Position numbers and translations under genes: made by a program. Source: a bacterium (lineage in GTDB: Bacteria > Verrucomicrobiota > Kiritimatiellia > CAIKKV01 > CAIYGI01). Taken from it: a stretch of DNA of 64,000 nucleotides. The notes beneath the pieces are model-generated. The model saw nothing but the letters and a program-made list of their open reading frames with translations, had not been told where the DNA came from and did not search any database. Positions 3,019-51,711 of the stretch are shown piece after piece. How positions within the stretch are numbered: the stretch's first letter is position 1; each line of letters opens with the position of its first letter. The stretch lies in assembly GCA_025360745.1 (NCBI GenBank), contig JANYBP010000043.1:10455-74454 (forward strand), in the 5' to 3' direction.

Positions 3019-3049
3019 CGCGCGCGGGCGGTGGCTCCGCGGAATTCGC

Positions 3050-4246
3050 TCAATATATCAGACAGCGCCCACGTTCTTCCGCAAAGTTGCGGAGGGCGGG
3101 TGTCCAACTGGCGGCGATGGCGGTGGGGGTATCGCCGGCGAGCAGCGCCTTACGAACCGTGTCGGACCCGAACAGTTTGTCGAAGAATTCAGGACGGCTT
3201 CGCGACGGCTCCCAGACGCGTTCGATACCATACAACTCCTGGAGTGTGTGAAGGATCGAAACGGCGGTCAAAGCGGGCCGAAACTCATGCGGACGGGTGA
3301 CACGCAAACGCACGCCGTCTATTGCAACGTTGTCGGCATACCCAGGATGGCTGGCGTAGCGGCAGGGCCGGAATTCGACGCCCGGCAGCCCCGCGGCCGA
3401 CAAACGGCGGGCAAGTGTTGCGCCCTTTGTCCAGACCGCGCCAAAAACGGAAAAAGGCCGGACGGTTTTACGGCCGTGATCCAGGGCGCCCAACGCTTCG
3501 AAGGCGACCAGCGCGGGATATGCCTGCGCGGCGGACCAGGAGACGATGGCGGGCGAAGGGCGACGCCAGGGCGGCCAGTGCGCGCCGCGCGCGGCGGCGC
3601 GCCGGTATCCGCGCAGTTTCGCGACACGTAACTTCAGCTCAGGCAGATGCCGGCGCTGGAACCAAAGGGCGGTTTCACCGGGTGTCATCCCGTAACTCAG
3701 CGGGACAGCGACGCAGGCAACGAAACTGCGAAAGGCTGGCTCCGTGACGGGGCCATCGAAAACGCGGGGCAGTGGAATCGGCCGATCGGCGACAATGACC
3801 TGCCTGCCCGCGGCCGCCGCGGCTTCCAGCGCGCCGCAAAGCGTGGCGATGTAGGTGTAGCAACGGCAACCCAGATCCTGCAGGTCAACCACCAGCGTAT
3901 CGATCTCCGCCAGCATGGCCGGCGTCGGAGCGCGGGTTGCGCCATAGAGCGAATGGATCGGAATGCGCCAGAGCGGATGCCGCGCGTCGGCGCATTCCAC
4001 CCCCGCCCCAGCCGCGCCGGCGAAACCATGTTCCGGGCCGAAAAGAGCCTTCAGTCGAACTCCTGGCGCATGCCACAGCCGCTCGGCGCTGGTGACGCCA
4101 TCCCTGTCGACCGCCGCCAGATGGCTCACCAGCCCGATGCGCCGCCCGGCCAGCCAGTCGCCGTGATCGGCCAGCAGGGTTTCGATACCGGGTTGAAAAC
4201 CGACGCCCATGGACATGGCCGGAATATGGCACAAGCCGGGAGCCAA
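3050..4246 (-). CDS. DUF1343 family protein (NamZ-like exo-beta-N-acetylmuramidase)
   Basis: Motifs LLADHGDWLAGRRIGLVSHLAAVDRDG and ALFGPEHGFAGAAGAG are typical of DUF1343. True start is uncertain (several in-frame Met). Convergent with the TAXI gene. Confidence 0.75.
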   Translation of the reverse strand: MAPGLCHIPAMSMGVGFQPGIETLLADHGDWLAGRRIGLVSHLAAVDRDGVTSAERLWHAPGVRLKALFGPEHGFAGAAGAGVECADARHPLWRIPIHSLYGATRAPTPAMLAEIDTLVVDLQDLGCRCYTYIATLCGALEAAAAAGRQVIVADRPIPLPRVFDGPVTEPAFRSFVACVAVPLSYGMTPGETALWFQRRHLPELKLRVAKLRGYRRAAARGAHWPPWRRPSPAIVSWSAAQAYPALVAFEALGALDHGRKTVRPFSVFGAVWTKGATLARRLSAAGLPGVEFRPCRYASHPGYADNVAIDGVRLRVTRPHEFRPALTAVSILHTLQELYGIERVWEPSRSRPEFFDKLFGSDTVRKALLAGDTPTAIAASWTPALRNFAEERGRCLIY

Positions 4247-10786: not shown

Positions 10787-11068
10787 TCATCGTCTTACCG
10801 GCGTCTTGTAGGTAATGCGACCGTCTCGAACTGTCAAAATAACAGCTATGATTGGACCTTCTGGGTCTGTGCGAAACGCATGATTGTGCGTAATCGTCCC
10901 GTCTTCATTCGTATGAACATAAAAATCAATTCCCAGCAGAGGAGCCACTTGGACGTATTCGCTTCCCAAAACTATTCTGTCATAAACCACCTGTTCTGGA
11001 TTATTTTTCTGACCACCGCATCCGCTCGCCGTCCAGAGCAGAAGAAGGAAAATGCACAAGCGCCGCAT
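10787..11068 (-). CDS. Small lipoprotein (hypothetical)
   Basis: Signal peptide with lipobox LWTASGC. 93 aa. In the low-GC islet. Confidence 0.5.
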   Translation of the reverse strand: MRRLCIFLLLLWTASGCGGQKNNPEQVVYDRIVLGSEYVQVAPLLGIDFYVHTNEDGTITHNHAFRTDPEGPIIAVILTVRDGRITYKTPVRR

Positions 11069-11108
11069 TACGCACCTCCCACCATGGCAAATAAAACTTT
11101 TTAATTCT

Positions 11109-11537
11109 CTACTCTCTGCCGATCTTTATCGGCGCTTTCTGAGCGACACTCATTCTACCCACAAAATGCAAACAGGCTGAAAGCCCTCCGATCATCAAAG
11201 CATTTGCATACGTTGTCCAGCGCACAGTTAAGGCTGTGCTGGTATAATTATAGACCATAGCGCAAACCACACCTACAGTCAGGATAAGACCCACGGCAAG
11301 TTTACCTACAGTGTTTTCATTCACAATTGGGTTCCCTAATCCCCGTTCACGTTCAATACGATGCCGCACCAGCATCGCAATCCCGTGAATGAGCAAAACG
11401 ATTGCAGCACCACACACCACATCGATCCACATTGAACGCCTCAATGTCTCCAGCATATAGAGTGACACCCCCCCAAGAACGACTACCATTCGCCGACGAT
11501 TCGTTCTTTTTTTGCCATCACAAGTCATATTTGCCAC
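11109..11537 (-). CDS. Small multi-pass membrane protein (candidate immunity protein)
   Basis: 3-4 predicted TM segments. No recognisable domain. Downstream of the toxin-like gene on the same strand. Confidence 0.45.
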   Translation of the reverse strand: MANMTCDGKKRTNRRRMVVVLGGVSLYMLETLRRSMWIDVVCGAAIVLLIHGIAMLVRHRIERERGLGNPIVNENTVGKLAVGLILTVGVVCAMVYNYTSTALTVRWTTYANALMIGGLSACLHFVGRMSVAQKAPIKIGRE

Positions 11538-11594
11538 TCTATTTTCCTATCAGGTTATAACGAAACACCAAAAACTTTGTTCCCACCCAAACAC

Positions 11595-11897
11595 CTACTC
11601 GCAAAACATCGAGCCCGCAGTCAGCACACCCTTGACTTTTTCTCGGAGTTTTCTCAACAACGCCAAGAATAAACCTGCCATCGCCCCGATGACTGCATTC
11701 ACCAGAAAGCAGAATGGAAGAAGTCGCCATGCGAGATCCAGTCCTTTTCCGCTGTGCGCAAATTGGCACCCCCTTCGTGCCTGCATCCGACTATTTCGAG
11801 TGGCCACAATGCTTTCGTTCGCCGGTGAATGCACCAATGACGGCCCATGTGGTTTGCAAAACGCCAGAGACAACCCATCCGAAAAGTAGTGAGACAA
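11595..11897 (-). CDS. Small membrane protein (uncertain; may start at internal Met about 11786, or be fused by frameshift to 11791..12150)
   Basis: Hydrophobic C-terminal half (LLPFCFLVNAVIGAMAGLFLALL). Overlaps the upstream ORF by about 107 nt in another frame. Confidence 0.3.
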   Translation of the reverse strand: MSHYFSDGLSLAFCKPHGPSLVHSPANESIVATRNSRMQARRGCQFAHSGKGLDLAWRLLPFCFLVNAVIGAMAGLFLALLRKLREKVKGVLTAGSMFCE

Positions 11898-12150
11898 CTA
11901 CATCGATTGCTGAGAACAAGAAGGTAAAGCAAATGCCCCAAATACCCACCACAGCCTTCGGCGTGTTTCCCGAGAACACAAATAGTACATCTTCCGGAAA
12001 GCACTTCCACCACTCCAGCAGACTTGGAGGAGGTCCCTTCACTCGACTGCCGAAATCGACGAACATCAAAGTTATAAAAATCAATGTCGAGATTGTGAAC
12101 CACAGTGGTCTACATGCTATTATCTTGGATCTCAAAATTGACTGGACCAT
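11791..12150 (-). CDS. Small multi-pass membrane protein (candidate immunity protein)
   Basis: Three hydrophobic segments. Starts 13 nt downstream of the RHS-tail toxin-like gene stop. Confidence 0.45.
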   Translation of the reverse strand: MVQSILRSKIIACRPLWFTISTLIFITLMFVDFGSRVKGPPPSLLEWWKCFPEDVLFVFSGNTPKAVVGIWGICFTFLFSAIDVVVSLLFGWVVSGVLQTTWAVIGAFTGERKHCGHSK

Positions 12151-12162
12151 ACGAAAGACCTC

Positions 12163-12939
12163 TCAATGACATGGGCCAACGTCTTGCGCTGAACAACCCC
12201 CGGTTATGAGTTCCGAGAATTCTGCCCCGGGCCAGAATGCCCGTTCGGTATAAGCCCCTCCTTCTCCGACAACTTGAAGGAGATCTACCCACGAATTTCC
12301 GATCTCAAGCACCTTCACCTTTGTGTCCTGCCAGTTTGCAAGAACCGTTTGGCGCCCCGGACCTGTAGCGCCCTTGGCATATCCCCGAATCGAATCACCA
12401 AGATTATAACTCTTCGCGCTGCCAATTGTCGTATGAACTCCCGCGTAGCCGTCGTATCCGGTCCATTGGGACTGGAACTGCCAGGAACATGTCACAAGAA
12501 AAGTCCTGCAACACGAATGCCTTGCTTTGACCCAGATTCGTGTTTCAGTATCACACAAATAGTTCCTGTAAAAAGGCAACGTTGTGCATGTCACAAATGC
12601 AGCGGCCGAACTACTCTCGCGAGGTCCAGAAGCCCATGCTCGTTTGCTAACCCCCCGATTATTGTCGCAGTCTGACTGCCCCCAAGACTTCCATTCTAAC
12701 AACCCGAGGGGATCCAACATATCTATTGTTCGATTGCGGACAAAAACATACAACGTTGGCGGCGGCGGACTCTTCGGAACCCCTCTGCGAATACCCACGG
12801 AATCGGTTGCATGCCGTTCATCTCCCAACGGATCTCTATTGAGCCATCTTCCCTCGTCCGGATGGTAATACGCTAGGGCCTTAACAACCAAACTACTTAA
12901 AATCAAACAACTCAAAAGAAAATACCGTATGCTTTTCAT
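12163..12939 (-). CDS. Secreted mini-RHS-tail protein: signal peptide plus RHS core-end/DPxGL motif plus novel Cys/Trp-rich C-terminal (toxin-like) domain
   Basis: MKSIRYFLLSCLILSSLVVKALA signal peptide, then YYHPDEGRWLNRDPLGDE ... TLYVFVRNRTIDMLDPLGL. This matches the RHS repeat-associated core terminal consensus (YYDPxxGRWxxxDPxG ... LYxYVxNNPxxxxDPxGL). No YD repeats anywhere. About 170-aa C-terminal domain of unknown family. Confidence 0.6.
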   Translation of the reverse strand: MKSIRYFLLSCLILSSLVVKALAYYHPDEGRWLNRDPLGDERHATDSVGIRRGVPKSPPPPTLYVFVRNRTIDMLDPLGLLEWKSWGQSDCDNNRGVSKRAWASGPRESSSAAAFVTCTTLPFYRNYLCDTETRIWVKARHSCCRTFLVTCSWQFQSQWTGYDGYAGVHTTIGSAKSYNLGDSIRGYAKGATGPGRQTVLANWQDTKVKVLEIGNSWVDLLQVVGEGGAYTERAFWPGAEFSELITGGCSAQDVGPCH

Positions 12940-14530
12940 GACTGCCCCTTTTGTTTTCTGGATCCCTCCAGGAATTTGTATTCATCAGCGTCTGGTACAG
13001 CAATGCCGAGGCAACGGTGCCGTCTTTGGAATCTTTCTTCACTTGATCCCGCATAAGTTGATTAAGTCTAGCAATATCCACGCCCTCCTTCTTCCTCAAG
13101 TTGTCCGCATAAGTTTTCACCGTCGCATGTTGTTTTTCACGCCCGTGTTGCTTGAGACAGAGTGCCCGTAACTCCAAGAAGGCGGCCAGTTCCCTTTTTG
13201 GAGACAGGGACTTCATGTACATTCCCGTTTCGAGTTCCTCCTTGGATATAGGCCAGGGCCACTCCATGTATTCCTGATCCGGATAACAGTTCAACCCTCG
13301 ATTAGTTCCTTCGATATTGAAGCGATCCTTGGCATCTTCCCACCTTACAAATAGGTGGCCTTTGCATTCGACAAGTTTCAGGGGATACCCCAGCCGCCTG
13401 CCGACGGCAACATAGAAGACAGGTAAGGATGCGCACGTTCCCTGATGCGCGGCCTCTGTCAGGCCGTGAATAAAAAGATCATGAGAATTTCCAAAGAACG
13501 AAAAGTCATTGCGGATGACTTCCACCGGTCCAGCCCGCATCTTCGGATCCTTGTTGTAACATACCTTGAAATCTTCCTGGAGGACGCAAATCATCATCAG
13601 AACGCGAAAGTATGCTTCAGAATTATTGAACTCTTCAGGTGTTTTCTGAAATTTGTAGAGATGCCTGTCTGTCTCATGTTTGACCCAAGCCGCCAACTGA
13701 TCGAAATCATTCCGCGTTTTCTCGACATCGAGTTTCTCTGCACCAGGTAGTCCCTTGGCCGCAAGGAGATTGATTTCGGCAATATCGTAGTCTTTCGAGG
13801 ACGCCTTCTTTTCCAGCATCTCGCACAAATTGAGTTCAGCGGTGTCAAAACCCTCGCCAACGGGGTGCGGGCGAATGCCAATCGATTCCTGTTTTGGGCG
13901 AACATCCAAGCCCGGGCCCCGCATAAGCCTCAAATTTTGCTGGTTAATTTCTGCTGTCCGCTGGAGTGACACTTGTCTTAGGCGCTCATTCTGTTGCTGT
14001 ATCTTGTCAGAATATTCATCGTCCGCCGACCTTGCAGACTGCCCGTTCCCTGATGACGTCTGCTTTATGTGTTCTTGTTCCTGTATATTCAGTTGCCCTT
14101 TATTTACTTCCAGCGCTTGCTGTTGGTACTCTTGAAACTCCTTCGTTGTCGCGACCTGAAGTTCGATTCTACTGAGTTCACGTTTCATTTCTATCACGTA
14201 TTCTTGCAGATGCGGCGGAATTGCGTTCGTGTGCGTGGACGATAATGCTTCCAAATTTCTTCTTATTTTCATGGCTCGTAACTCGAACTCGTCCATAGCC
14301 ATCTGTTGATTCACGATGTTCTGTTCATCTTGTTCAAGACTCAGTCTTTTGGCGGTTATGGCAAGTTGCTCCGGGTCTGTGTAACCTGCAACTCTGCGAC
14401 TATTTTGTGCAAAGACTGGAAACTCTGCCAGAACAAGCGGTAGAATGGTTGCAAGTGCGGTTAGCAAGATGCTGACACGCGGGAGCAATCTCGGTTTTCG
14501 TCGCTCGCTACTCATAAAAGCCGTTTGCAA
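12893..14530 (-). CDS. Secreted coiled-coil protein with C-terminal transglutaminase-like cysteine-protease domain
   Basis: N-terminal signal/TM. About 250 aa Gln/Glu-rich coiled coil. C-terminal GTCASLPVFYVAVGRRLGYPLKLVECKGHLFVRWED...FNIEGT matches the transglutaminase-like core (GxC ... ALGIPAR ... HAWVE ... D). 3' end overlaps the next gene by 47 nt. Confidence 0.6.
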   Translation of the reverse strand: MQTAFMSSERRKPRLLPRVSILLTALATILPLVLAEFPVFAQNSRRVAGYTDPEQLAITAKRLSLEQDEQNIVNQQMAMDEFELRAMKIRRNLEALSSTHTNAIPPHLQEYVIEMKRELSRIELQVATTKEFQEYQQQALEVNKGQLNIQEQEHIKQTSSGNGQSARSADDEYSDKIQQQNERLRQVSLQRTAEINQQNLRLMRGPGLDVRPKQESIGIRPHPVGEGFDTAELNLCEMLEKKASSKDYDIAEINLLAAKGLPGAEKLDVEKTRNDFDQLAAWVKHETDRHLYKFQKTPEEFNNSEAYFRVLMMICVLQEDFKVCYNKDPKMRAGPVEVIRNDFSFFGNSHDLFIHGLTEAAHQGTCASLPVFYVAVGRRLGYPLKLVECKGHLFVRWEDAKDRFNIEGTNRGLNCYPDQEYMEWPWPISKEELETGMYMKSLSPKRELAAFLELRALCLKQHGREKQHATVKTYADNLRKKEGVDIARLNQLMRDQVKKDSKDGTVASALLYQTLMNTNSWRDPENKRGSHEKHTVFSFELFDFK

Positions 14531-14718
14531 AATGCGCTGGCGAACAGGTTAAAATGATCTAACTGACAAGGTGATGTGCGCTTCGAGGGCAATATACCAA
14601 GCGAAATCTACGTTAGAAGCAATAGATTGCAAGTTCTTGAACCCGTTTCTAGATGAATTCCGGTTCGGCATGCAGCCGAAATTGGCCCGTCCCCGTCGCC
14701 TTCTTCGGGTTGCCAACA

Positions 14719-15387
14719 TCAAGGGGCGGCATGTTTCCCAACGTCCAATGGAATTACAATGCGCTCTCCAATGACAAGCGCACGCTCAGCGTCAATCCTA
14801 TTGGCCTTCATGATCCCCGCACTGGTGACTCCGAAGGCTTCTGCGACTGTCCGAATGGTATCCCCCCTCTTTGCTATATAAGACATCATGACTTGCTTCA
14901 CATTTTCTGTTATTGATGTTTTGCCATAACCGCCATCGCCATTTTTTACTGGAGCGCGCCCATCGAAGTTATCGCTCAGATCGACAACCCTGGCGCTTTG
15001 TCCCTTGCCAGTTCCCAAAATATCCGTGAGCTGTCCTAGTCGACTGTCGATATCTGCTATAGCCACCTCGTTGTTGAATCCCATTTGCCGCCAACTGATG
15101 CGAATCCGCGTGCCACTTACAAGAGTTGCCTCCACATATTTTTGCGACGTCACGTCAATCTGAACCAAGCGCATGCCTCTATTCCAAGCGCGTTCATATA
15201 ACTGCAACGCCACGCAGAACGATGTCGCGCCGACTATTCTTACCCGGTCTTCTTGCGTGCTGTTCACTGCTTGAGTCGGACTGACGCGCAGACTGTCATC
15301 GTCAGTTCTCTCCACAACCCAAACCGGATCAGCTCCACAACTTACTGCACAAAGCATTACCAATAGGCACGCATGCATATGATTCAT
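14719..15387 (-). CDS. Lipoprotein with C-terminal LysM peptidoglycan-binding domain
   Basis: Lipobox AVSCG. C-terminal YIAKRGDTIRTVAEAFGVTSAGIMKANRI...GERIVIP is a LysM motif. Confidence 0.7.
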   Translation of the reverse strand: MNHMHACLLVMLCAVSCGADPVWVVERTDDDSLRVSPTQAVNSTQEDRVRIVGATSFCVALQLYERAWNRGMRLVQIDVTSQKYVEATLVSGTRIRISWRQMGFNNEVAIADIDSRLGQLTDILGTGKGQSARVVDLSDNFDGRAPVKNGDGGYGKTSITENVKQVMMSYIAKRGDTIRTVAEAFGVTSAGIMKANRIDAERALVIGERIVIPLDVGKHAAP

Positions 15388-15480: not shown

Positions 15481-16503
15481 TTACAACGCCCAGGCGATCA
15501 GTCGCCAGTATCCGGCCAGCAGGGCGCCGGCTACGCCCGCCAGGCGCGCGGACAGGCCGCCGCGCACGCCGGGGGGCGGATCAGGGCGGCCGCCGCACAG
15601 CAGTTCCCTGTCCGAAACGAGTTTGCGCGGCACGAAGGCGCGCCGCTTGCGCAGCGCCCCGGAAAGCCCGCACAGCGCATGCCAGGCGCCGCGCGCAAAT
15701 TCCCCGCCCTGCCCCTTGAACAGGAAGAATACGCCGGCGCAGGCCTGATAAAAGATCAGCGCGGGCAGCGCCAGCCAGAGGGTTTTGGAATCGTAATGCC
15801 GCACCACGAACCACCAGCGGTTGCGGGTCTGCAGCGCGATCCAGCGCGTCCCGCGCGGACGGGCCATATGATACGCCAGCGCCGCGGGCGCCGCGTAACA
15901 GGGATGACCCAGGGCCGCCATACGGAATGCCAGGTCCCCATCTTCCCATCCGAAAAACAGATCCTCGTCAAAAGCATCGGCGGCCAGGGCCGCCGACCGG
16001 TTGTAAAGCGCCGCGCCCGCGGAAACCGTGCCGACCCGCGCGGGCTCATCGCCGCGGGGCCGGTAGACCACCACCTCGGCGGCGTAGTGCAGAAAGGCCC
16101 CGCAGTACTGCATTGTTTGCGGTTCGGCATGCAGCCGGATCTGCCCCGTCACCGCACCCGCGCCGGGTTGTGCCGCGAAAACCGCCGCCAGCCGTTGAAC
16201 GTAATCCGGGGCCAGCACGAGGTCGTTGTCCATGATCAGCACGAGTTCCGTTTCCGCCGCGCGCAGCGCCGCGTTGCGCGCCGGATTCGGACCGCGGTTG
16301 TCCGGCATTTCGATCACCTGGACCCGTCCGGCATAACGCGCGCGCAGCAGTGACAGGGAATCGTCCGAGGAGTGGTTGTCCACCGCCAGAATCGAATGCA
16401 AAACGATGCCAGTCTGGGCCAGCACGGAATCGAGGGTTGGCCCGAGCACGGCTGCGCCGTTGTAGTTGATCACCGCGACGGTGATGCCGGCGGCGGCGGT
16501 CAT
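15481..16503 (-). CDS. Glycosyltransferase family 2
   Basis: VAVINYNGAAVL...DNHSSDDS...DNDLVL GT-A fold motifs (DxD). Start ATG overlaps the stop of the upstream deacetylase gene (ATGA 16500-16503). Confidence 0.85.
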   Translation of the reverse strand: MTAAAGITVAVINYNGAAVLGPTLDSVLAQTGIVLHSILAVDNHSSDDSLSLLRARYAGRVQVIEMPDNRGPNPARNAALRAAETELVLIMDNDLVLAPDYVQRLAAVFAAQPGAGAVTGQIRLHAEPQTMQYCGAFLHYAAEVVVYRPRGDEPARVGTVSAGAALYNRSAALAADAFDEDLFFGWEDGDLAFRMAALGHPCYAAPAALAYHMARPRGTRWIALQTRNRWWFVVRHYDSKTLWLALPALIFYQACAGVFFLFKGQGGEFARGAWHALCGLSGALRKRRAFVPRKLVSDRELLCGGRPDPPPGVRGGLSARLAGVAGALLAGYWRLIAWAL

Positions 16504-17843
16504 GACCGGCGGGCTCCGGCCGCGGACGGCGCGGGAAGGTGCAGGTTGGAAGGTGGAGGTTGGAGGGTGGAAGGTGGAGGGTGGAGGGTGGAAGGTGGAG
16601 GGTGGAGGGTGGAAGACGAATCGGTTCCAGCAGTACTCGGGGACGGCGCGGCGATGCGCACGGCATAGGGGAGCAGAACGGCGCGACGATGCACGGAGAG
16701 GGAACTGCTCACCGCCAGGCGGCGGGCGGCGCCCGCGCCTTCACGCCAGGTCGCGCCCACCGACAATTCGCATGCGCCCGGCGTCGCGCTGTCCGGAACG
16801 ACCAGCGGCACTTCCATAACCTGCGCCCACATGTCCGCCCCCTCCGAAAGCACATTATCCGCCTGCGCCAGCATGCGGCCACGCTGGCGCAGGTGGATGA
16901 ATCCGACCAGAGCGGAGGACTCCGCCTCCGCGGGCACGGACCAGTAACACCGCAGCAGCAGGCGTTCGCCTGGCGCGACGGGACCCTCCGGCGCGCCGAT
17001 TCCCAGCAGCGTGACGCCGCGATCGAAGGCCGCCAGCGGCGCTTCGGCGCGGGCGATCAATTCCGGCACGGTCACAAAGGTGTAACCGCGCGCCTTAAGC
17101 GCCGCCAGCACCTGTTCCAGAACCTTGACCACCACGGCGCGGTTGAATCCCAACTGGGTATCGTGTCCATCGTGCAGCAAAAGAATGGCGCCCGAACTCA
17201 CCCGCCGCAGCATGTAATCCGCCATGACTTCCGGCGGATCGTTATGCCAATCGTAGGCATGCACCGAGACGCCGACATTGATCTGGTTTTCGGCCCGGCA
17301 CAGTCCCGCCAAACCACGATAGCGGCGGTCGGCGGCGCTGACGCCAACGGCCTTGGCGCCCGCCTCCTCATCCGGCCCGAAAATGCCGAAGGGATCGCGA
17401 AATAACACCGGACGCACACCCGTCACGGCGGCGATGGCGTCGGCGCCGTGACGGATCTGGTCGCGCCGTTCCGCATACGAAATCCGGTCGAAGCGCGGAT
17501 GGTCGTAGGAGTGGTTGCCGATCGCATGGCCGGCCTGCAACATACGCCGCACCGTGTCCGGACTGCGTTCGACATTGGTGCCGACGAGGAAAAAAGTCGC
17601 CCGCACCGACTCGCGGTCGAGAACGTCGAGCACCTGCGAGGTGTAGGGTTCATTCGGACCATCATCGAAGGTAAGCGCCACCACGCGCCCCGCAACCGGC
17701 ACATAACTTACAAGATCGCCCGCTTGAGGCCTGAAGGGCAGCCGTTCCGGTCCGCGGCATCCCGCCAGCGCAAAGACAGCGATAAAAACGAGCACGGAGG
17801 CACAAAGGGCTTTAATAGCGCATCGCACAACTTTCATGCGCAC
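16500..17843 (-). CDS. Polysaccharide deacetylase (NodB/CE4) lipoprotein with Pro-rich repeat tail
   Basis: Lipobox LAGC. NodB motifs TFDDGP...HSYDHP. C-terminal (STLHPPP)n tail encoded by a GGTGGA-type tandem repeat. Confidence 0.85.
   Translation of the reverse strand: MRMKVVRCAIKALCASVLVFIAVFALAGCRGPERLPFRPQAGDLVSYVPVAGRVVALTFDDGPNEPYTSQVLDVLDRESVRATFFLVGTNVERSPDTVRRMLQAGHAIGNHSYDHPRFDRISYAERRDQIRHGADAIAAVTGVRPVLFRDPFGIFGPDEEAGAKAVGVSAADRRYRGLAGLCRAENQINVGVSVHAYDWHNDPPEVMADYMLRRVSSGAILLLHDGHDTQLGFNRAVVVKVLEQVLAALKARGYTFVTVPELIARAEAPLAAFDRGVTLLGIGAPEGPVAPGERLLLRCYWSVPAEAESSALVGFIHLRQRGRMLAQADNVLSEGADMWAQVMEVPLVVPDSATPGACELSVGATWREGAGAARRLAVSSSLSVHRRAVLLPYAVRIAAPSPSTAGTDSSSTLHPPPSTLHPPPSTLQPPPSNLHLPAPSAAGARRS
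16541..16620. repeat. Tandem GGTGGA/GGGTGGA-type repeat (coding, Pro-rich tail); a dispersed second copy of the motif lies at 47150-47200
   Basis: ttggaaggtggaggttggagggtggaaggtggagggtggagggtggaaggtggagggtggagggtggaag seen directly in the sequence. Confidence 0.8.
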
Positions 17844-31788: not shown

Positions 31789-31797
31789 TTTAATAAA

Positions 31798-31826
31798 CGA
31801 TGAACGATGAATGATGAACGATGAAG
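31798..31826. repeat. Left arm of inverted repeat, (CGATGAA)x4, bracketing the four-helix-bundle gene
   Basis: cgatgaacgatgaatgatgaacgatgaag. Its reverse complement lies at 32215-32242. Confidence 0.75.
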
Positions 31827-31845: not shown

Positions 31846-32220
31846 TCATTGCTGTTTCCTTTTTTTTGCGGTAATTACGGAAGCGGTGAAGATTGCTATG
31901 AGTTCTTCCGTTTCGTCCAACAGCCCTTGCATCTCATCTGACAGAACGGTTTTACTGCCGACCAGCAGTTCCAACCAATATACAGTCTCATCCAACTCCT
32001 GCAGACCACCCTCCATCTTGCTTATGAACTCAGCCGTGGAACGCGCTCGGGACGCTTCGCGATGGTGCGCACCAACCGACGTTCCGCTTCTCAGCACTTG
32101 CTTTCCAAGAACCTGGGCCACGGACGTTTTCGCTAAAGAACAATACATTCGGATAATCCGCAGTGAATATTCCTTCAGCCTCTCTTTCAAATCCCAAGGT
32201 TTCTGTTTTTCCGCATTCAT
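31846..32220 (-). CDS. Four-helix-bundle protein (23S rRNA intervening-sequence protein family)
   Basis: EYSLRIIRMYCSLAK...QVLRSGTSVGAHHREASRARSTAEFISKMEGGLQELDETVYWLELL is typical of the family. Confidence 0.8.
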   Translation of the reverse strand: MNAEKQKPWDLKERLKEYSLRIIRMYCSLAKTSVAQVLGKQVLRSGTSVGAHHREASRARSTAEFISKMEGGLQELDETVYWLELLVGSKTVLSDEMQGLLDETEELIAIFTASVITAKKRKQQ

Positions 32221-32242
32221 CGTTCATCATTCATCGCTCATC
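32215..32242. repeat. Right arm of inverted repeat, (TTCATCG)n, overlapping the start codon of the four-helix-bundle gene
   Basis: cattcatcgttcatcattcatcgctcatc. About 21 contiguous complementary bases with the left arm. Confidence 0.75.
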
Positions 32243-32329: not shown

Positions 32330-32542
32330 TACACCGCGACTTCAGCGTGTTGGATTCTGGTTCCGAAGTGCGCATCGACTTCAGGCCGTGCGTCAAGATA
32401 GTCGCGGATGGCGCCACGGATGTTCGCCAAGGCTTCTTCGCGTGTTGCGCCTTGTGAGCAACACCCAGGCAAGGCGTCTCACCAAACGGCAAAACCTTCG
32501 TCGGATTCAACCAGTGTGACGTTGTAGCGTTCGGCATTCATG
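32330..32542 (-). pseudogene. hicB: HicB-family (UPF0150) antitoxin-like gene interrupted by an in-frame TGA
   Basis: My minus-strand translation: MNAERYNVTLVESDEGFAVW-(TGA)-DALPGCCSQGATREEALANIRGAIRDYLDARPEVDAHFGTRIQHAEVAV*. The -PGC-SQG-T-EEAL-N- pattern is HicB-like. Not in the ORF track because of the stop. No hicA partner is visible. Confidence 0.4.
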
Positions 32543-43243: not shown

Positions 43244-43645
43244 CTACTCCACCCAGGGACTCTGCCTGCTCTCCGGCGTGTAACAATGCAGTTCGATCTT
43301 GTTTCCGTCGGGATCGGCCAACCATGCCTGCCAACTCCGGTCCTTGCCCAGTTTCGGGTCGCTCACTTCCACCCCCTGGCCGCGCAGCGCCGCCACCGTC
43401 GCGGGCAGATCGTCCACCTCCAGGCAAATATGCTTAAAGGACGCTTGCGGAACCGCCGGTTGCACGACCCCCTGGAATATCTCGATGAATGAGCGCCGCC
43501 CGATTTTAAGGTAAGCGCCGAAACGCTGCCCATCCTCCTTCACGAAATCGAAAGCCGGCTTGCATCCCAGCTTGCCGCAATAAAACTCCACACTGCGGTC
43601 CAAATCAGCCGCGTTGAAACAAACATGCGCCAATCCTGTAATCAT
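43244..43645 (-). CDS. VOC family protein (glyoxalase/bleomycin-resistance fold)
   Basis: HVCFNAADLDRSVEFY ... HICLEVDD ... IELHCY paired beta-alpha-beta-beta-beta modules. Confidence 0.8.
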   Translation of the reverse strand: MITGLAHVCFNAADLDRSVEFYCGKLGCKPAFDFVKEDGQRFGAYLKIGRRSFIEIFQGVVQPAVPQASFKHICLEVDDLPATVAALRGQGVEVSDPKLGKDRSWQAWLADPDGNKIELHCYTPESRQSPWVE

Positions 43646-43661
43646 GGGGCGTTCTCCAAAA

Positions 43662-43735
43662 GGGTGCAGGGTTCAGGGTTCAGGGTTCAGTGTGCAGGGT
43701 TCAGTGTGCAGGGTTCGGGGTTCAGGGTTCGGGAA
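43662..43735. repeat. Heptanucleotide microsatellite, (GGGTTCA)n about 9-10 units with GTGTGCA variants
   Basis: cagggttcagggttcagggttcagtgtgcagggttcagtgtgcagggttcggggttcagggttcggg, immediately upstream of the VOC gene start. Confidence 0.85.
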
Positions 43736-43783: not shown

Positions 43784-43917
43784 GTAATGGGTCAGTTACG
43801 CGGTGGGACCGCCTGAAGGCGGTACACCAAACGCGGGAATAATAAGAAGTAATGCCGTTTGGTGTACCGGCTTTAGCCGGTCTTTAGTCCACCTCCCCTA
43901 TGTCACTGACCCATTAC
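43784..43917. mobile_element. MITE-like miniature inverted-repeat element (134 bp) with 13-bp TIRs and 8-bp flanking direct duplication CGCGGAAC
   Basis: Left: cgcggaac|gtaatgggtcagt... Right: ...actgacccattac|cgcggaac. Internal nested hairpins (ggtacaccaaacg...cgtttggtgtacc; ccggctttagccgg). Confidence 0.6.
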
Positions 43918-46759: not shown

Positions 46760-47254
46760 ATGTTCTTCGGGTCCGACGGCCCCATGGAATGGATGATCGT
46801 TGCCCTGGCCGTGCTGATGCTCTTCGGCAGCCAGCGCCTGCCGGACATGATGCGCACCCTGGGTCGCCTGAGCGCCAAGCTTTACCGCGCCCGCGACGAG
46901 TTTCGCAAAGAATTTCAGAAAGCCATCGAACTGCCGGATGAATCGGAGGTCGGAGATCGGAGGCCAGAGGTCGGAGATCGGACATCGGAAGTCGGAAGTC
47001 AGCGGGCGGAGGTCGGAGAGCATCCCGATATGACATCCTGTCTACCTCAATCCAATTCTAAACTCCAACTTCCGGCATCTTCCATCCCGACGGCTGACGT
47101 TCAACATCAATCCTTCGAACTTTCGAATACCACCGCCGACCCATCACATTCCACCCTCCACCTTCCACCCTCCACCCTTTACCCTCCACCCGGCCCCGCT
47201 GACCTCAAACCTACGGCCACCGGACCAGGCCATACCTCGGAGTTCGAGGTATGA
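46760..47254 (+). CDS. tatA: Sec-independent translocase TatA/TatB-family protein with extended repeat-containing C-terminal tail
   Basis: MEWMIVALAVLMLFGSQRLPDMMRTLGRLSAKLYRARDEF is a TatA/B TM plus amphipathic helix signature. The tail has EVGDR-type repeats (46936-47010) and a STLHLPPSTLYPPP segment (47150-47200). Stop overlaps tatC start. Confidence 0.75.
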   Translation: MFFGSDGPMEWMIVALAVLMLFGSQRLPDMMRTLGRLSAKLYRARDEFRKEFQKAIELPDESEVGDRRPEVGDRTSEVGSQRAEVGEHPDMTSCLPQSNSKLQLPASSIPTADVQHQSFELSNTTADPSHSTLHLPPSTLYPPPGPADLKPTATGPGHTSEFEV

Positions 47255-48051
47255 GCATGCCGGATGCATACAATGGTCGTTTGCCGGAAGTGCCGGAGGC
47301 TCCCGTAGAGGGCGGCCCCTACAAACCTTTTTTGGGACATCTGGAGGACCTGCGCCGCATGCTCCTGCGCAGCGCCACGATCGTCGCGCTTTTGTTTTGC
47401 GCGGCCATGGCTTTTGCGCCGCAACTCTTTGCATTCTTAAAATGGCCCCTGCGCCGGGCGGCGATCGATCCTGATCGTTTCCTGCTCGCCTTCACCGTGA
47501 CGGGCGGTATTCAACTATGGATGCAGATGGCTTTTGGGGCGGCGATTGTGGCCAGCGCGCCACTTTTGCTGGCGCTCTGGACGGCCTATCTACTGCCCGC
47601 GCTGAGAAAGCGCGAGCGGCAGTTGCTGGTTCGCGGATTGTTGCTCGGCGCCCTGCTTTTTCTTGCCGGCGCCGCGCTCGCCTTCCTGGTTTTGCTGCCA
47701 CCCACCCTGCGCGTGATGCTGGATATTTACGCCTGGCTGGGCATACCGGTGACTTTCTGGACGGTGGACGATTATGCCGGCTTCTGCCTGAAACTGATGC
47801 TGGCCTTCGGCATCACTTTCGAGATGCCAGTTTTATTGCTGGCACTGGGTTATCTCGGCATCGTCACCGCCGCCCAATTGGGGCGCTTCTGGCGGCATGC
47901 CATCGTGATCGCGCTGATCGTATCCATGGTCGTCACGCCCACCACTGACCCCGTCAGCCAACTCGTGCTGGCCGCCCCGCTGGTGCTGCTCTATGCGCTC
48001 AGCATCCTGCTGCTCTGGCGGCACGAACGACGACAGGCGGCGGGGATGTGA
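47251..48051 (+). CDS. tatC: Twin-arginine translocase subunit TatC
   Basis: Six TM helices. LEDLRRMLLRS TatC N-terminal motif. Confidence 0.9.
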   Translation: MSMPDAYNGRLPEVPEAPVEGGPYKPFLGHLEDLRRMLLRSATIVALLFCAAMAFAPQLFAFLKWPLRRAAIDPDRFLLAFTVTGGIQLWMQMAFGAAIVASAPLLLALWTAYLLPALRKRERQLLVRGLLLGALLFLAGAALAFLVLLPPTLRVMLDIYAWLGIPVTFWTVDDYAGFCLKLMLAFGITFEMPVLLLALGYLGIVTAAQLGRFWRHAIVIALIVSMVVTPTTDPVSQLVLAAPLVLLYALSILLLWRHERRQAAGM

Positions 48052-49589
48052 GGAAACAATCCCATTCAACGCCTATTCTGGAGATGCGCGGCATCGGCAA
48101 GTCGTTTGCAGGTGTGCGGGTGCTGGATGATGTTCAATTGACCCTCTATGCCGGCGAGACGCATATCCTGGCCGGCGAAAACGGAGCCGGCAAAAGCACG
48201 CTGATCAAAATTCTGGCCGGCATTTATACAGAGTTCACGGGCGAAATCAGCTTCAACGGCCGGCCGGTGCGCTTCAAAAATCCGCAGGCCGCATCCGCAC
48301 TGGGCATCCGCGTAATTCATCAGGAACTCTCGCTGGTGCGCGAGATGAGCGTGCTCGACAACCTTTTTCTGGGCCGCGAGTTGTGCCGCTATTCCATGCT
48401 GCGCCGCAAGACTCAGCGCGAACAGGCCGCGGCGCTCTTGCAACGTCTGGGGCTCGATCTCGACCTTCAGCGTACCGCCGGTTCCTACCCCCTGGGTCTG
48501 CAGCAGATGATCGAAATCGCCAAGGCCCTGCTGGGCGATGCCGTCGTGCTGATTCTTGACGAACCCACCAGCGCCCTGACCGGAATCGAGGCGGAGAAGT
48601 TGTTTGCCTTCATGGCGGCGCTCAAAGAGCGCGGTTGCGCGCTGATCTATATCTCGCACAAGATGGAGGAAATCTACCGGCTGGCCGACCGGATCACCGT
48701 GCTGCGCGACGGACGTTGGATCGGCAGCGAACGGGCTGACGCTTTGCCGCGTGCGGAGATGATCCGCTGGATGGTGGGACGCGAGTTGACAGGGCATTTC
48801 CCGGCGCGTCCCGCCCTTGTGCCCGGCGCGCCGGCGCTTTTGCGAGTAACCGGCTTCAGCGTGGCCGATCCGGCCGGCAAACGCGATTTTGCCGTCAGGG
48901 ATCTATCGCTCGAAGTCCGGCGCGGGGAGATCGTGGGCTTGGCCGGACTTCAGGGCGCGGGCAACTCGGAGCTGTTGCTTGGTCTTTTTGGCGCTTACCC
49001 GGGCGGCGTGCGCGGCCTGATGGAGGTGGAAGGAAAGCGTCTGACGCCGGGCTCGCCCGCCATGGCCATCGCCGCCGGACTGGCGCTGGTCACCAACGAC
49101 CGCAAGCAGACCGGACTGATCGCCGATCACAGCATCCGCTGGAATCTCACCCTGGCGGCCTTGCGGCGCTTATCGCCCGCCGGCTGGCTGCGGCCGCGGC
49201 GCGAAAGGGCCTGCGCTGCGGATTATCTCGAACGACTGGCGATTCGCGCGGCATCGTCCGATCAACCAGTGGCGACACTATCGGGCGGCAATCAGCAAAA
49301 GGTCGTGCTAAGCAAGTGGCTCGCGACACAGCCGCGCGTGCTGTTGTTGGATGAACCGACACGCGGAGTCGACATCGGCGCCAAGCATGAAATTTACGAA
49401 TTGATGAACCAATGGACCGCGCAGGGACTGGGCATTTTGCTGATCACCTCGGAAATGCCCGAATTGCTGGCGCTGTCGGACCGGATTCTGGTAATGCATG
49501 GCGGTCGCGTCACGGCGGAACTTTCGCGCCGGACAGCCACGCCCGAAGGCATCATGCGGGCGGCCATGGGAGAGGAAGCGGCGGCATGA
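48048..49589 (+). CDS. Sugar ABC transporter ATP-binding protein (tandem ABC domains, ribose/xylose/galactose type)
   Basis: Two Walker A (GENGAGKST; GLQGAGNSE) motifs, two LSGG signatures and Walker B. Start ATG overlaps tatC stop. Confidence 0.9.
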   Translation: MRKQSHSTPILEMRGIGKSFAGVRVLDDVQLTLYAGETHILAGENGAGKSTLIKILAGIYTEFTGEISFNGRPVRFKNPQAASALGIRVIHQELSLVREMSVLDNLFLGRELCRYSMLRRKTQREQAAALLQRLGLDLDLQRTAGSYPLGLQQMIEIAKALLGDAVVLILDEPTSALTGIEAEKLFAFMAALKERGCALIYISHKMEEIYRLADRITVLRDGRWIGSERADALPRAEMIRWMVGRELTGHFPARPALVPGAPALLRVTGFSVADPAGKRDFAVRDLSLEVRRGEIVGLAGLQGAGNSELLLGLFGAYPGGVRGLMEVEGKRLTPGSPAMAIAAGLALVTNDRKQTGLIADHSIRWNLTLAALRRLSPAGWLRPRRERACAADYLERLAIRAASSDQPVATLSGGNQQKVVLSKWLATQPRVLLLDEPTRGVDIGAKHEIYELMNQWTAQGLGILLITSEMPELLALSDRILVMHGGRVTAELSRRTATPEGIMRAAMGEEAAA

Positions 49590-50590
49590 AACGATCGGAG
49601 CTGATGCAACAAGGCCGACAATGGATTCGTTCGCCATTTGCGCGGGCCTTGCTGGCGCTGATTTGCATCGCGATCCTCGGCGTAATCTTTAACGCCGACG
49701 GCGCCTTTTACAAATGGTCCACCCATCGCGATATGTTCCGGCAGATATCCGTCTTCGGTATCCTGGCCTGCGGACTGACTGTGGTCATCATCGCGGGCGG
49801 CATCGATTTGTCGGTGGGCAGTCTGGTCGGCCTGAACGCCGTGCTCTTCTCGATGCTGACGATCCATTGCGGCTGGCCGGCCGCCGCGGCGATCGCGGCC
49901 TGTCTGCTGGCCGGAACGGCGGCGGGAGTGTCGTCAGGCGGACTGGTGGCGAAGTTCCGCCTGCAGCCCTTCATCGCCACCCTGGCCATGATGGTCTTCG
50001 CGCGCGGCCTGGCCAAATGGATATCCGGCGGACAAAAGGTATCATCGGCGGTTCAGCAGGCCGACGGCGCATATAGTTATGTGGAAACACCGGCTATTTT
50101 TAACGCCTTGAATGCCAGAATCTGGCACGACAATGTGGCCGTGGTTTCGGTGGTCTTTCTGGTCTGCCTGGCCGTGACGGCGCTGATTCTTGCGCGCCTG
50201 CGCTGGGGCCGTTATGTTTACGCCATCGGCGGTAACGAGGAGGCGGCGCGACTCTCGGGCGTGCCGGTCAAGGCCACCCAGTTGCTGGCGTATGGACTGT
50301 GCGGATTGTTCAGCGCGGTGGCGGGCTTGTGCCAGGCCGCCCAGGAATTGCAGGGCGATCCCGAGGCCGGCGTCTCCTACGAATTGACGGCGATCGCGAT
50401 CGTCGTGATGGGCGGCACAAGTCTGGCCGGCGGACGCGGCGGCGTGGGACTGACGCTGCTCGGCGCCTTGACCATCGGTTATCTCGAAAAGATACTCAGC
50501 ATCAACGCGGTCGGCGAAGCCGCGCGCCTGATGCTCACGGGTACAATCATCGTGGTGGCCGTCATTTTCCAAAAGGGCGCGAAAAGATGA
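49586..50590 (+). CDS. Sugar ABC transporter permease (RbsC/XylH-like)
   Basis: About 10 TM helices. Conserved GGIDLSVGS permease motif. ATGA overlap with the ATPase gene. Confidence 0.85.
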   Translation: MKRSELMQQGRQWIRSPFARALLALICIAILGVIFNADGAFYKWSTHRDMFRQISVFGILACGLTVVIIAGGIDLSVGSLVGLNAVLFSMLTIHCGWPAAAAIAACLLAGTAAGVSSGGLVAKFRLQPFIATLAMMVFARGLAKWISGGQKVSSAVQQADGAYSYVETPAIFNALNARIWHDNVAVVSVVFLVCLAVTALILARLRWGRYVYAIGGNEEAARLSGVPVKATQLLAYGLCGLFSAVAGLCQAAQELQGDPEAGVSYELTAIAIVVMGGTSLAGGRGGVGLTLLGALTIGYLEKILSINAVGEAARLMLTGTIIVVAVIFQKGAKR

Positions 50591-50594
50591 GAGG

Positions 50595-50765
50595 CAGAAG
50601 CCAGAATTCAGAATTCAGAATGAATTCCCTGTTTTCTGGAGGGTCGGGCTTGCAACTCTGCGAAGCAGCGCTTCGCTGCGTAGCACGAGCCTTCTGACTC
50701 CTGAATTCTGCCTTCTGGATTCTGCCTTCTGGATTCTGGCTTCTGGATTCTGGCTTCTGGAACTG
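50595..50765. promoter_or_regulatory. Highly structured intra-operon spacer: long imperfect inverted repeat built from (CTTCTGGATTCTGG)n tandem units around a perfect GCGAAGC-AGC-GCTTCGC hairpin
   Basis: ccagaattcagaattcagaa ... gcgaagcagcgcttcgc ... ctgccttctggattctgccttctggattctggcttctggattctggcttctgg read directly. Confidence 0.55.
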
Positions 50766-50799
50766 TTATCTTGAAATGACCGAACCGAAAGGAAATCCG

Positions 50800-51711
50800 A
50801 TGAAAATGATCCTTGTCGTCTTGATGAGCGCTTTCCTGACCACCGGAGCGCTCGCGCAAAAGAGTTTCACCATCGGCATGAGCCAGTGCAATCTGGGCGA
50901 GCCCTGGCGTGTGCAGATGAACGCCGATATCAAGAAGAGCGCCGCGGCGCATCCGGAGTTGAAGCTGATCTACAAAGATGCCCAGAACGATACGCTCAAG
51001 CAGCGCGCGCAAATCGAGGAATTCGTCGCCGCCGGGGTCGATTTGCTGATCGTTTCTCCAAAGGAGGCCGTGCCGCTCACGCCGCCGGTGGCCGCGGCCT
51101 TTAAGAAAGGCATACCGGTGATCGTTCTCGACCGCCGCCTGGTGGGCGACCAGTTCACCTGTTTTATCGGCGCCGACAATCGCCGCATCGGCCGCGCCGC
51201 GGGCCGCTGGATCGTCGAAAAGCTCCACGGCACAGGTCAGGTGGTGGAGTTGAAAGGACTGATGACCTCCACGCCCGGTCAGGATCGCAACGCCGGGTTT
51301 CGCGAAAGCATCAAAGAGACCGGCATCAAGGTCGTCTTCGAGGCCGACATGAAATGGCTGGAGCCCGATGCGCGCAAGGAAATGGAATCCGCCTTGGCGC
51401 GCTTTCCGGACATAAAGCTGGTTTATGCCCATAACGATCCGGGCGCCCACGGGGCCTGGCTGGCCGCCAAGGCCGCGGGGCGCGAAAAGGATATTCTTTT
51501 CGTGGGCATCGACGGTTTGCCCCAGGAGGGCCGGACTTATGTGAAGCAGGGCATCCTGGCGGCAAGTTTCGAATATCCCACCGGCGGACGGGAAGCGATC
51601 GACGCCGCATTGAGTATTCTGAACGGGAAGCCGCCGGCCAAGGAGATCACGTTGAAATCCAAAGCCTTCACGCCGGAGAATATCGAAAAAGGCGGGGAAG
51701 AATTGCCGTAG
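50800..51711 (+). CDS. Sugar ABC transporter periplasmic substrate-binding protein (RbsB-like)
   Basis: Signal peptide. Peripla_BP_4-like (LLIVSP...GIPVIVLDR...). RBS AAAGGAAAT before ATG 50800. Confidence 0.85.
   Translation: MKMILVVLMSAFLTTGALAQKSFTIGMSQCNLGEPWRVQMNADIKKSAAAHPELKLIYKDAQNDTLKQRAQIEEFVAAGVDLLIVSPKEAVPLTPPVAAAFKKGIPVIVLDRRLVGDQFTCFIGADNRRIGRAAGRWIVEKLHGTGQVVELKGLMTSTPGQDRNAGFRESIKETGIKVVFEADMKWLEPDARKEMESALARFPDIKLVYAHNDPGAHGAWLAAKAAGREKDILFVGIDGLPQEGRTYVKQGILAASFEYPTGGREAIDAALSILNGKPPAKEITLKSKAFTPENIEKGGEELP

Follow-up and report, generated by a model that had tools for sequence, protein, structure and literature searches.

What fills the spacer between the permease gene and the substrate-binding protein (SBP) gene of a sugar-transporter operon, and does it do anything there? 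The question arises in a 64,000-nucleotide stretch of contig JANYBP010000043.1 from a bacterium of the Kiritimatiellia; we call this whole stretch the window. A preliminary description had noticed about 170 nt of repeats and palindromes at this position. We find that the element is a real, non-random structure and a new instance of a repeat class that is known yet unexplained. Its assignment to a class of palindromic insertions with stems of heptamer repeats is well supported. Our preferred reading, to which we give about an even chance, is that it is a gene-less hairpin akin to the intervening sequences (IVSs) of 23S rRNA genes, with a stem of inverted 7-nt arrays, co-transcribed with its neighbors and probably cut by RNase III. 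The locus is made up as follows.

49412 to 50590, + strand: ATP-binding cassette (ABC) transporter permease (BPD_transp_2; Pfam PF02653, E = 4.9e-40)
50592 to 50621, + strand: 5' arm, a purine-rich heptamer array, AGG CAGAAGC CAGAATT CAGAATT CAGAAT, with about four copies of the unit CAGAAKN (from Tandem Repeats Finder [TRF] and the inverted-repeat arms; purine fraction 0.67)
50622 to 50690, + strand: non-repetitive centre (loop region), which holds the central hairpin; conservation in a related locus, L002, is limited to the TTTTCTGGAGGG motif
50691 to 50761, + strand: 3' arm, pyrimidine-rich, ten units CTTCTGG/ATTCTGG/ATTCTGC (five copies of a 14-mer), the reverse complement of the CAGAAKN family
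50788 to 50802, + strand: sequence AAAGGAAA (50788-50795), resembling a ribosome-binding site (RBS), followed by the ATG (50800) at which the SBP begins; both outside the stem and conserved in L002
50800 to 51711, + strand: periplasmic sugar-binding protein SBP (Peripla_BP_4, ribose-type; Pfam PF13407, E = 3e-49)

The boundaries of the spacer follow from the two genes, both of which are on the + strand, so that the element is intergenic and lies between co-oriented genes. The permease stop codon TGA occupies 50588-50590, and the stem begins about 2-5 nt further on. Homologues of the SBP carry the name ribose transport SBP, and its N terminus is a signal peptide. As judged from the sequence, its start is most likely the ATG at 50800, which follows the RBS-like AAAGGAAA and precedes the signal peptide. 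Given that start, the spacer runs from 50591 to 50799 (209 nt), and 39 nt separate the end of the right array from the ATG. Matching sequence comes from an independent Logan assembly of this strain (L001), whose contig terminates within the right array.

The three parts named in the preliminary description are all present where it had placed them. TRF reports the left part, gCCAGAATTCAGAATTCAGAATGAATTC, as 2.9 copies of CAGAATT at 50602-50621 with 100% matches, and a preceding CAGAAGC extends this arm to 50592-50621. The central core, gcgaagc-agc-gcttcgc at 50661-50677, is a perfect 7-bp/3-nt hairpin that can be extended to 16-nt arms with 81% complementarity (50651-50685). The right array is reported with period 7 (10.0 copies, 50691-50760), which is equivalent to 5.0 copies of period 14 (92% matches, score 105). 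The arrays at 50592-50621 and 50691-50761 are convergent and 70 nt apart. The right units had been called the reverse complement of the left arm, and the two arrays are indeed complementary in at least four registers, each of 26-27 nt and 88-89%. With up to two mismatches, the 14-mer occurs six times against 0.36 expected, and every occurrence is within the spacer.

It had also been proposed that the whole spacer can fold into one long imperfect stem, and RNA folding bears this out, with the arrays at the base. The predicted energy of 50588-50800 is -81.6 kcal/mol, compared with -64.0 +/- 4.6 kcal/mol for dinucleotide shuffles (z -3.87), and none of 200 shuffles was as stable. The arm stem is present in the minimum free energy structure, and in the ensemble the bases of the left array pair with the right array with a mean summed probability of 0.75. 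The same ensemble leaves the RBS unpaired with a probability of 0.03-0.65 and the SBP ATG with 0.57-0.86.

The preliminary description had overlooked that the window has several period-7 arrays, of which the spacer element is one, and that the class of this element elsewhere encloses a gene for a four-helix-bundle protein. Among short tandem periods, only 7 and its double 14 are enriched here, with six arrays compared with zero or one for each other period from 4 to 15. One inverted pair of arrays flanks such a gene, in a sibling of the spacer element that lies just upstream of carB.

32216 to 32242, - strand: 5' arm of the sibling element, (GATGAAY)n, which reaches into the start codon of the gene inside
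31846 to 32220, - strand: enclosed gene for a 124-aa four-helix-bundle protein of the 23S rRNA intervening-sequence protein family (TIGR02436, E = 4.4e-20; PF05635, E = 1.5e-14)
31796 to 31825, - strand: 3' arm, (TTCATCR)n, which stops 7 nt short of the start codon of carB (31788)

The arms of the sibling element form an uninterrupted 26-bp stem, which is also present in the centroid structure (fold -160.6 kcal/mol, z -3.55). In a related contig, a cargo gene with 91% identity is also found at the carB site. Another with 86% identity is at an unrelated site, and the anatomy there is unchanged. In carB relatives of 81-82% identity, pyrG adjoins carB directly and there is no element. The closest named carB relatives are Kiritimatiellae, at 75-77% identity.

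We extended the analysis to 80 metagenomic loci with homologues of the sibling protein, 74 of which have both gene flanks. Complementary flanks (score >= 14) were found at 55 of these 74 loci and at none of 147 displaced controls. Period-7 arrays were present in 94 of 148 flanks compared with 4 of 294 control flanks, and arrays of any other period were found in only four flanks. The anatomy is constant. An upstream stop codon is followed by a purine-rich heptamer array, which often includes the start codon, then by the open reading frame (ORF), an inverted pyrimidine-rich array, 0-15 nt, and the next ATG. The genes are sense-oriented, with a co-directional neighbor upstream in 59 of 67 cases and downstream in 50 of 64, and the permease-SBP element is placed likewise. 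Of 59 elements, 57 begin with the purine-rich arm, and the permease-SBP element and L002 share this order.

The dominant units of the class are GATGAAG, GATGAAT, GATGAGG, and GATGAAC. Units of the CAGAAKG type, the family to which those of our spacer belong, are a minority and flank four-helix-bundle genes at six loci (L083, L084, L085, L093, L140, and L158). This limited vocabulary of GATGA-NN and CAGAA-NN units recurs across phyla. The fetched loci, 1.54 Mb in all, contain 183 period-7 arrays, compared with 8-9 each for periods 5, 8, 10, and 11. Gene-less inverted heptamer hairpins also exist, with 13 in the same 1.54 Mb.

The gene-bearing form of the class encloses a gene of the S23p family, that of the 23S rRNA IVS protein, and its anatomy is that of the classical 23S IVS of Coxiella. 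The Coxiella IVS has a 28-bp stem, with tandem GACAGAT heptamers just before the S23p start codon whose copy number varies among strains (PMC4990558). Its cleavage by RNase III has been shown, with the 5' cut at the first repeat, and the origin and function of IVSs are still described as unclear (PMC4990558). Several traits are shared with the IVSs of Coxiella burnetii and Leptospira. The long terminal stem is similar (28 bp in Coxiella and 27-nt arms at 89% here), and so is the 5' arm of tandem heptamers in variable copies. GACAGAT is a rotation of GATGACA, which is near the GATGA-NN units of the class. The sibling in the window encloses the same protein family and has its start codon at the array, and the element behaves like a selfish insertion with a scattered distribution. 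In contrast to the 23S IVS, the permease-SBP element is in an mRNA spacer, has no ORF, and is built of CAGAAKN units, and a cut by RNase III is something that we infer here. It is located in the permease-SBP spacer and not in helix 25 or 45 of 23S rRNA.

How might such an element act? It would be transcribed within the ATPase-permease-SBP mRNA, as suggested by a spacer scan that returned neither promoter nor terminator. The arrays are predicted to zip into a duplex of about 27-35 bp. In silico, the periodicity of the two arms lets the stem form in several registers, presumably shifting by 7-nt steps, and makes it tolerant of gained or lost units. Judging from the Coxiella IVS, RNase III would act on a stem of this length, and we regard such processing of the spacer stem as plausible. 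The cut would separate the SBP cistron from the ATPase and permease cistrons and so uncouple their decay rates; the SBP RBS and start codon sit just beyond the stem. The preliminary description had offered attenuation or processing as a means of differential expression. Attenuation found no support, with neither a terminator-like site nor a U-tract in the spacer, and mRNA processing is the best-supported mechanism by the Coxiella analogy.

Related genomes point to a recent origin. The order permease then SBP occurs in 62 of 73 orthologous loci from many phyla, which rules out the earlier suggestion that the gene order here is atypical. The median spacer in these 62 loci is about 55 nt. Only one relative, L002, shares the structure (SBP 96% and permease 97% identical). 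At the same site it has six left copies of CAGAAGN, three right copies of TTCTGGN, and a centre of about 200 nt, compared with 4 left and 10 right copies in the window. Its whole spacer forms one long hairpin, and more strongly than in the window (-145.8 kcal/mol, z -8.0). Relatives with SBP identities of 82%, 81%, and 73% have array-less spacers of 57, 15, and 55 nt, respectively. Because only L002 shares the element and relatives at 73-82% have short spacers, the element is a recent insertion or expansion in an ancestrally short spacer. The empty sites in L166 and L005 are too diverged to define a target-site duplication or exact boundaries. Such fast change in the centre and in copy number is suggestive of an insertion that is near-neutral or selfish. 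If it has a regulatory effect, this is probably a side effect rather than that of a precisely tuned riboregulator.

Three more contigs of the L002 type show no difference over the part that can be read and are broken inside the spacer. The right arm and centre of the L002 type have one and the same sequence in four independent samples. No strain-level variation in copy number was seen in these further contigs; what remains of them is the L002 sequence, and they break in the arrays. The leftmost 80 nt of one of them (L171) have no match to L002, which could be a true variant or an assembly chimera formed at the palindrome. Unrelated long palindromes occupy the same permease-SBP junction in four other loci (L011, L032, L015, and L009), with fold z scores of -3.7 to -6.3; the one in L011 is of the gtcatcctgagcgaagcgaaggatc type. 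The junction is either a tolerant site or one at which hairpins have been favored time and again. A Lentisphaerae ortholog (L007) has its SBP gene between heptamer arrays (2995-3125 and 4080-4190) with quite different units. At an Acidobacteria locus (L058, 4231-4284 and 8852-8917), two back-to-back inverted heptamer arrays form near-perfect hairpins with 2-nt loops and end 9-15 nt before start codons.

We also searched the spacer for more familiar elements. Rfam 15 gave no match with E <= 1 in 50400-51000, and none at the gathering score across the whole window, rRNA included, and no known RNA family, riboswitch, or leader came to light. A terminator scan of 50300-51000 found zero terminator-like sites; the stem is followed by GAACUGUUAUCUUGAAAUG, with no U-tract. 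No consensus match to a sigma-70-like site or internal promoter was found in the spacer. With these consensus scans empty, we dropped a terminator, attenuator, or internal promoter as candidates. Neither the 14-mer (up to two mismatches) nor the central hairpin (up to three) has a copy elsewhere in the 64-kb window. Therefore, the element is not a dispersed repeat of the repetitive extragenic palindromic (REP) type, as the preliminary description had suggested it might be, and the other arrays in the window are built of different units. A decayed four-helix-bundle gene in the centre was rejected as well. A profile search for PF05635/TIGR02436 in six-frame translations of the window and L002 spacers gave a best E of 2.7. 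A search for relatives on viral contigs found none.

Several observations weigh against an IVS-like hairpin that is cut by RNase III. First, both transcription through the spacer and its cleavage are inferred by us. Second, the bridge to the classical IVS is made by the protein family, the anatomy, and the Coxiella paper (PMC4990558), and none of the 80 fetched four-helix-bundle loci (0/80) is within 23S rRNA. Third, neither the window spacer nor that of L002 retains a trace of a four-helix-bundle gene, which makes descent from a gene-bearing form conjectural. Fourth, a palindrome shows the purine-first polarity whichever strand is read, so that this polarity identifies no functional strand. 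It is therefore a class signature, and we dropped it as a strand marker. Fifth, the arm mismatches in the 59 elements comprise 36 G.U and 46 A.C pairs (p = 0.32). There is thus no G.U excess over A.C, and nothing singles out RNA rather than DNA as the selected form. Sixth, the centres of the window and L002 elements align at the TTTTCTGGAGGG motif alone, which argues against a precise regulatory RNA, and the existence of relatives without the element counts against a finely tuned function. Finally, the unrelated palindromes at the junction could mean that this spacer just tolerates junk.

The last of these points leads to the main rival, which is that the spacer contains functionless, slippage-prone DNA. 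Here polymerase slippage would have made the heptamer arrays, and the palindrome would be tolerated between cistrons with no effect on expression. We consider this possible, if doubtful. It fits the turnover of centre and copy numbers between relatives that are 96% identical, the unrelated palindromes at the junction, and the lack of a G.U excess in the arms. It also fits relatives that manage with spacers of 15-57 nt, and slippage is said to favor 7-nt units (PMC4692102). However, slippage alone does not explain why complementary arrays converge at 55 of 74 loci and at none of the controls, or why the purine-rich arm so consistently comes first. Furthermore, hairpin potential has been kept despite the sequence change between L002 and the window (z -8.0 and -3.9), and a stem of 27-35 bp in an mRNA is unlikely to escape RNase III.

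Xanthomonas and Nostoc also have an excess of heptameric simple sequence repeats (SSRs) in intergenic regions (Rehm et al. 2015, PMC4692102). Each Xanthomonas genome has 70-75 convergent pairs of heptamer arrays, mostly between co-oriented genes and most of them transcribed, and their position is conserved and their length is not (PMC4692102). Like the permease-SBP element, these SSRs are intergenic 7-nt arrays, often in convergent pairs able to form a stem-loop. Their sites are kept while length and sequence vary among relatives, and their function is unresolved as well. In contrast, the Xanthomonas SSRs (GGGAATC) have G-tract units able to form G-quadruplexes, which CAGAAKN cannot; neither CAGAAKN nor CTTCTGG has a run of three G. 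They are also from another phylum, and no link to a four-helix-bundle gene is reported there.

After functionless DNA, the next rival is that the arrays are sites for a protein that binds single-stranded heptamers (a cold-shock, S1-type, or four-helix-bundle protein) and controls SBP translation or stability. We judge this to be unlikely. Binding of this kind was proposed by MacGregor (2015) for TAACTGA direct repeats, which terminate just a few nucleotides before start codons (PMC4679880), and a Nostoc preprint describes regulatory effects on deleting heptamer repeats near start codons (10.1101/2022.06.06.494920). The 3' arrays of the four-helix-bundle class end similarly close to the next ATG, and their limited vocabulary across phyla would suit a binding protein. 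However, the array in the permease-SBP spacer ends 39 nt before its ATG, and mutual complementarity would keep the arrays mostly double-stranded (P = 0.75). In addition, units vary widely among arrays of the same genome, unlike what a single binding protein would require, and no candidate protein has been identified. The short tandemly repeated repetitive (STRR) sequences of cyanobacteria and the TAACTGA repeats of the Beggiatoaceae resemble the permease-SBP class in being intergenic tandem heptamers, often near a start codon, patchy across phyla, and unexplained in mechanism. However, they are overwhelmingly direct arrays with one or a few fixed units per genome, and only 1 inverted case in 170 sets is reported in BOGUAY (PMC4679880). 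The permease-SBP class has inverted pairs with units that differ from site to site.

Might the element instead be a contingency locus, in which strand slippage alters the number of heptamers and thereby switches or tunes expression of the SBP between cells by phase variation? We think this very unlikely. Copy numbers do differ between the window and L002, the number of IVS heptamers varies among Coxiella strains, and assemblies break at the arrays. Nevertheless, the L002-type right arm and centre did not vary among the four samples. The arrays are outside the coding sequence and the RBS, and there is no promoter-like element with array-dependent spacing. Rehm et al. also describe heptamer repeat sites as positionally stable (PMC4692102).

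The least probable alternative, which we regard as highly improbable, is a mobile palindrome of the REP/bacterial interspersed mosaic element (BIME) type or the miniature inverted-repeat transposable element (MITE) type. It would have been spread by a transposase (REP-associated tyrosine transposase [RAYT] or insertion sequence [IS]) and would stabilize mRNA as REPs do in malEFG and hisJQMP. REP/BIME sequences are conserved, dispersed palindromes of about 35 nt that shield an upstream SBP message from 3' exonucleases, as in malE-malF and hisJ-hisQ. The permease-SBP element is similarly an intercistronic palindrome in the operon of a binding-protein-dependent transporter. It is inserted relative to related genomes, it could set unequal levels of SBP and membrane components via mRNA stability, and L011 has a typical dispersed-type palindrome at the same junction. 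Against this, the repeat here is locus-specific, its 14-mer and central hairpin being unique in 64 kb, and different units make up the remaining arrays of the window. The stems consist of tandem arrays rather than a single conserved palindrome of 20-40 nt, neither a target-site duplication nor a clean boundary could be delimited, and the SBP gene follows the element instead of preceding it.

For the transporter itself, the stakes of the IVS-like hairpin reading are modest: candidate RNase III punctuation could uncouple expression of the SBP from that of its membrane partners in the sugar transporter of an uncultured bacterium of the Planctomycetes-Verrucomicrobia-Chlamydiae (PVC) group. The link between heptamer-array stems and an IVS protein gene at the level of the class is the part worth pursuing. 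Over-represented heptamer repeats have been noted in bacteria since 1990 and are still unexplained. This puzzle meets that of IVS origin here. At 55 of 74 unrelated metagenomic loci, inverted heptamer arrays between co-directional genes enclose an IVS protein gene, and gene-less hairpins, that of our spacer among them, occur as well. Array-flanked cassettes therefore offer a testable handle on both. In the literature that we searched, which did not cover all journals, we found no link of heptamer-array stems to IVS-protein genes outside rRNA.

A broader interpretation can be offered tentatively, and we think it more likely to be wrong than right. Heptamer-array hairpins with or without the four-helix-bundle gene might be one IVS-type cassette family that colonizes transcribed spacers (protein operons, tRNA clusters, and rRNA genes) in many phyla. 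The repeat stem would be an RNase III entry site that spares the host transcript. The four-helix-bundle protein, which is related to the Avd accessory protein of retroelements, would work on its own heptamer stem to help the cassette spread or persist. The gene-less hairpins would then be empty landing pads or decayed remains. If this were true, the classical 23S IVS would merely be the best-known habitat of a much larger mobile system.

Individual loci of the class have further features. In L133 (2831-3510), an array-flanked four-helix-bundle element separates the tRNA-Ser(cga) gene from the tRNA-Ala(cgc) gene in a six-gene tRNA cluster, a stable-RNA operon comparable to the classical rRNA habitat. 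In L162 (4375-4440), the 3' array (TTCATCG TTCTTCG ...) is inside the next gene, where it encodes a hydrophobic signal peptide (MNPFCFIVLRSVFIVLFALPCAWA); here the repeat array has been recruited as coding sequence. There is also a practical side, which is that heptamer arrays repeatedly break short-read assemblies. Contigs terminate inside them in L001 and L171-L173, and many four-helix-bundle homologues are on contigs shorter than 1.5 kb.

Near the sibling element, the region between it and pyrG (about 32330-32540, - strand) resembles a HicB-type antitoxin gene with a frameshift (MNAERYNVTLVESDEGFAVW* in one frame and ..LPGC.SQG.TREEALANIRGAIRDYL.. after it in a different one). A Pfam search of the 98-aa ORF called there gave no hit. 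HicB-like genes also precede the 91%-identical element in the related contig.

The remaining arrays of the window are in other settings. The ABC ATPase gene (48048-49589) and tatC are both upstream of the permease-SBP spacer, and the permease probably has its true start further downstream than 49412. The spacer of about 310 nt between tatA and tatC contains (TCGGAGG)x11 at 46943-47018, directly after the tatA stop codon, and (TCCACCC)x6 at 47150-47191, about 60 nt before tatC. One resembles a Shine-Dalgarno (SD) sequence and the other an anti-SD sequence, and their mutual complementarity is just 5/7. We considered them as a third inverted pair, and the fold was no better than that of shuffles (z -0.36). 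Therefore, we treat them as two separate arrays. The array (GGAGGGT/GGAAGGT)x11.7 at 16534-16615 has the unit of the 47150 array on the opposite strand. It is translated as the C-terminal tail (..STLHPPPSTLHPPPSTLQPPP..) of a polysaccharide deacetylase ORF (16500-17843, - strand) and is 30 nt upstream of the start of an overlapping glycosyltransferase family 2 (GT2) gene at 16503. The array (AGGGTTC)x10 at 43661-43730 occupies the spacer between a TonB-like gene and a divergent glyoxalase-family gene (- strand), whose start at 43645 it precedes by 15 nt. The unit of this array also occurs in the unrelated loci L119, L007, and L041.

Next to this last array, 43790-43915 contains a separate nested inverted repeat, cgtaatgggtcagt...actgacccattacg around ggtacaccaaacg...cgtttggtgtacc, with a regional fold z of -2.6 and no Rfam match. 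Small ORFs with low GC content at third codon positions (GC3) were considered as extra cargo genes and proved to be artefacts of a crude gene map. A gene block at 10787-15387 has a GC3 of about 0.5 compared with about 0.75 elsewhere. It consists mostly of unannotated ORFs, with a LysM protein and a weak transglutaminase-like match, and it may have been acquired horizontally.

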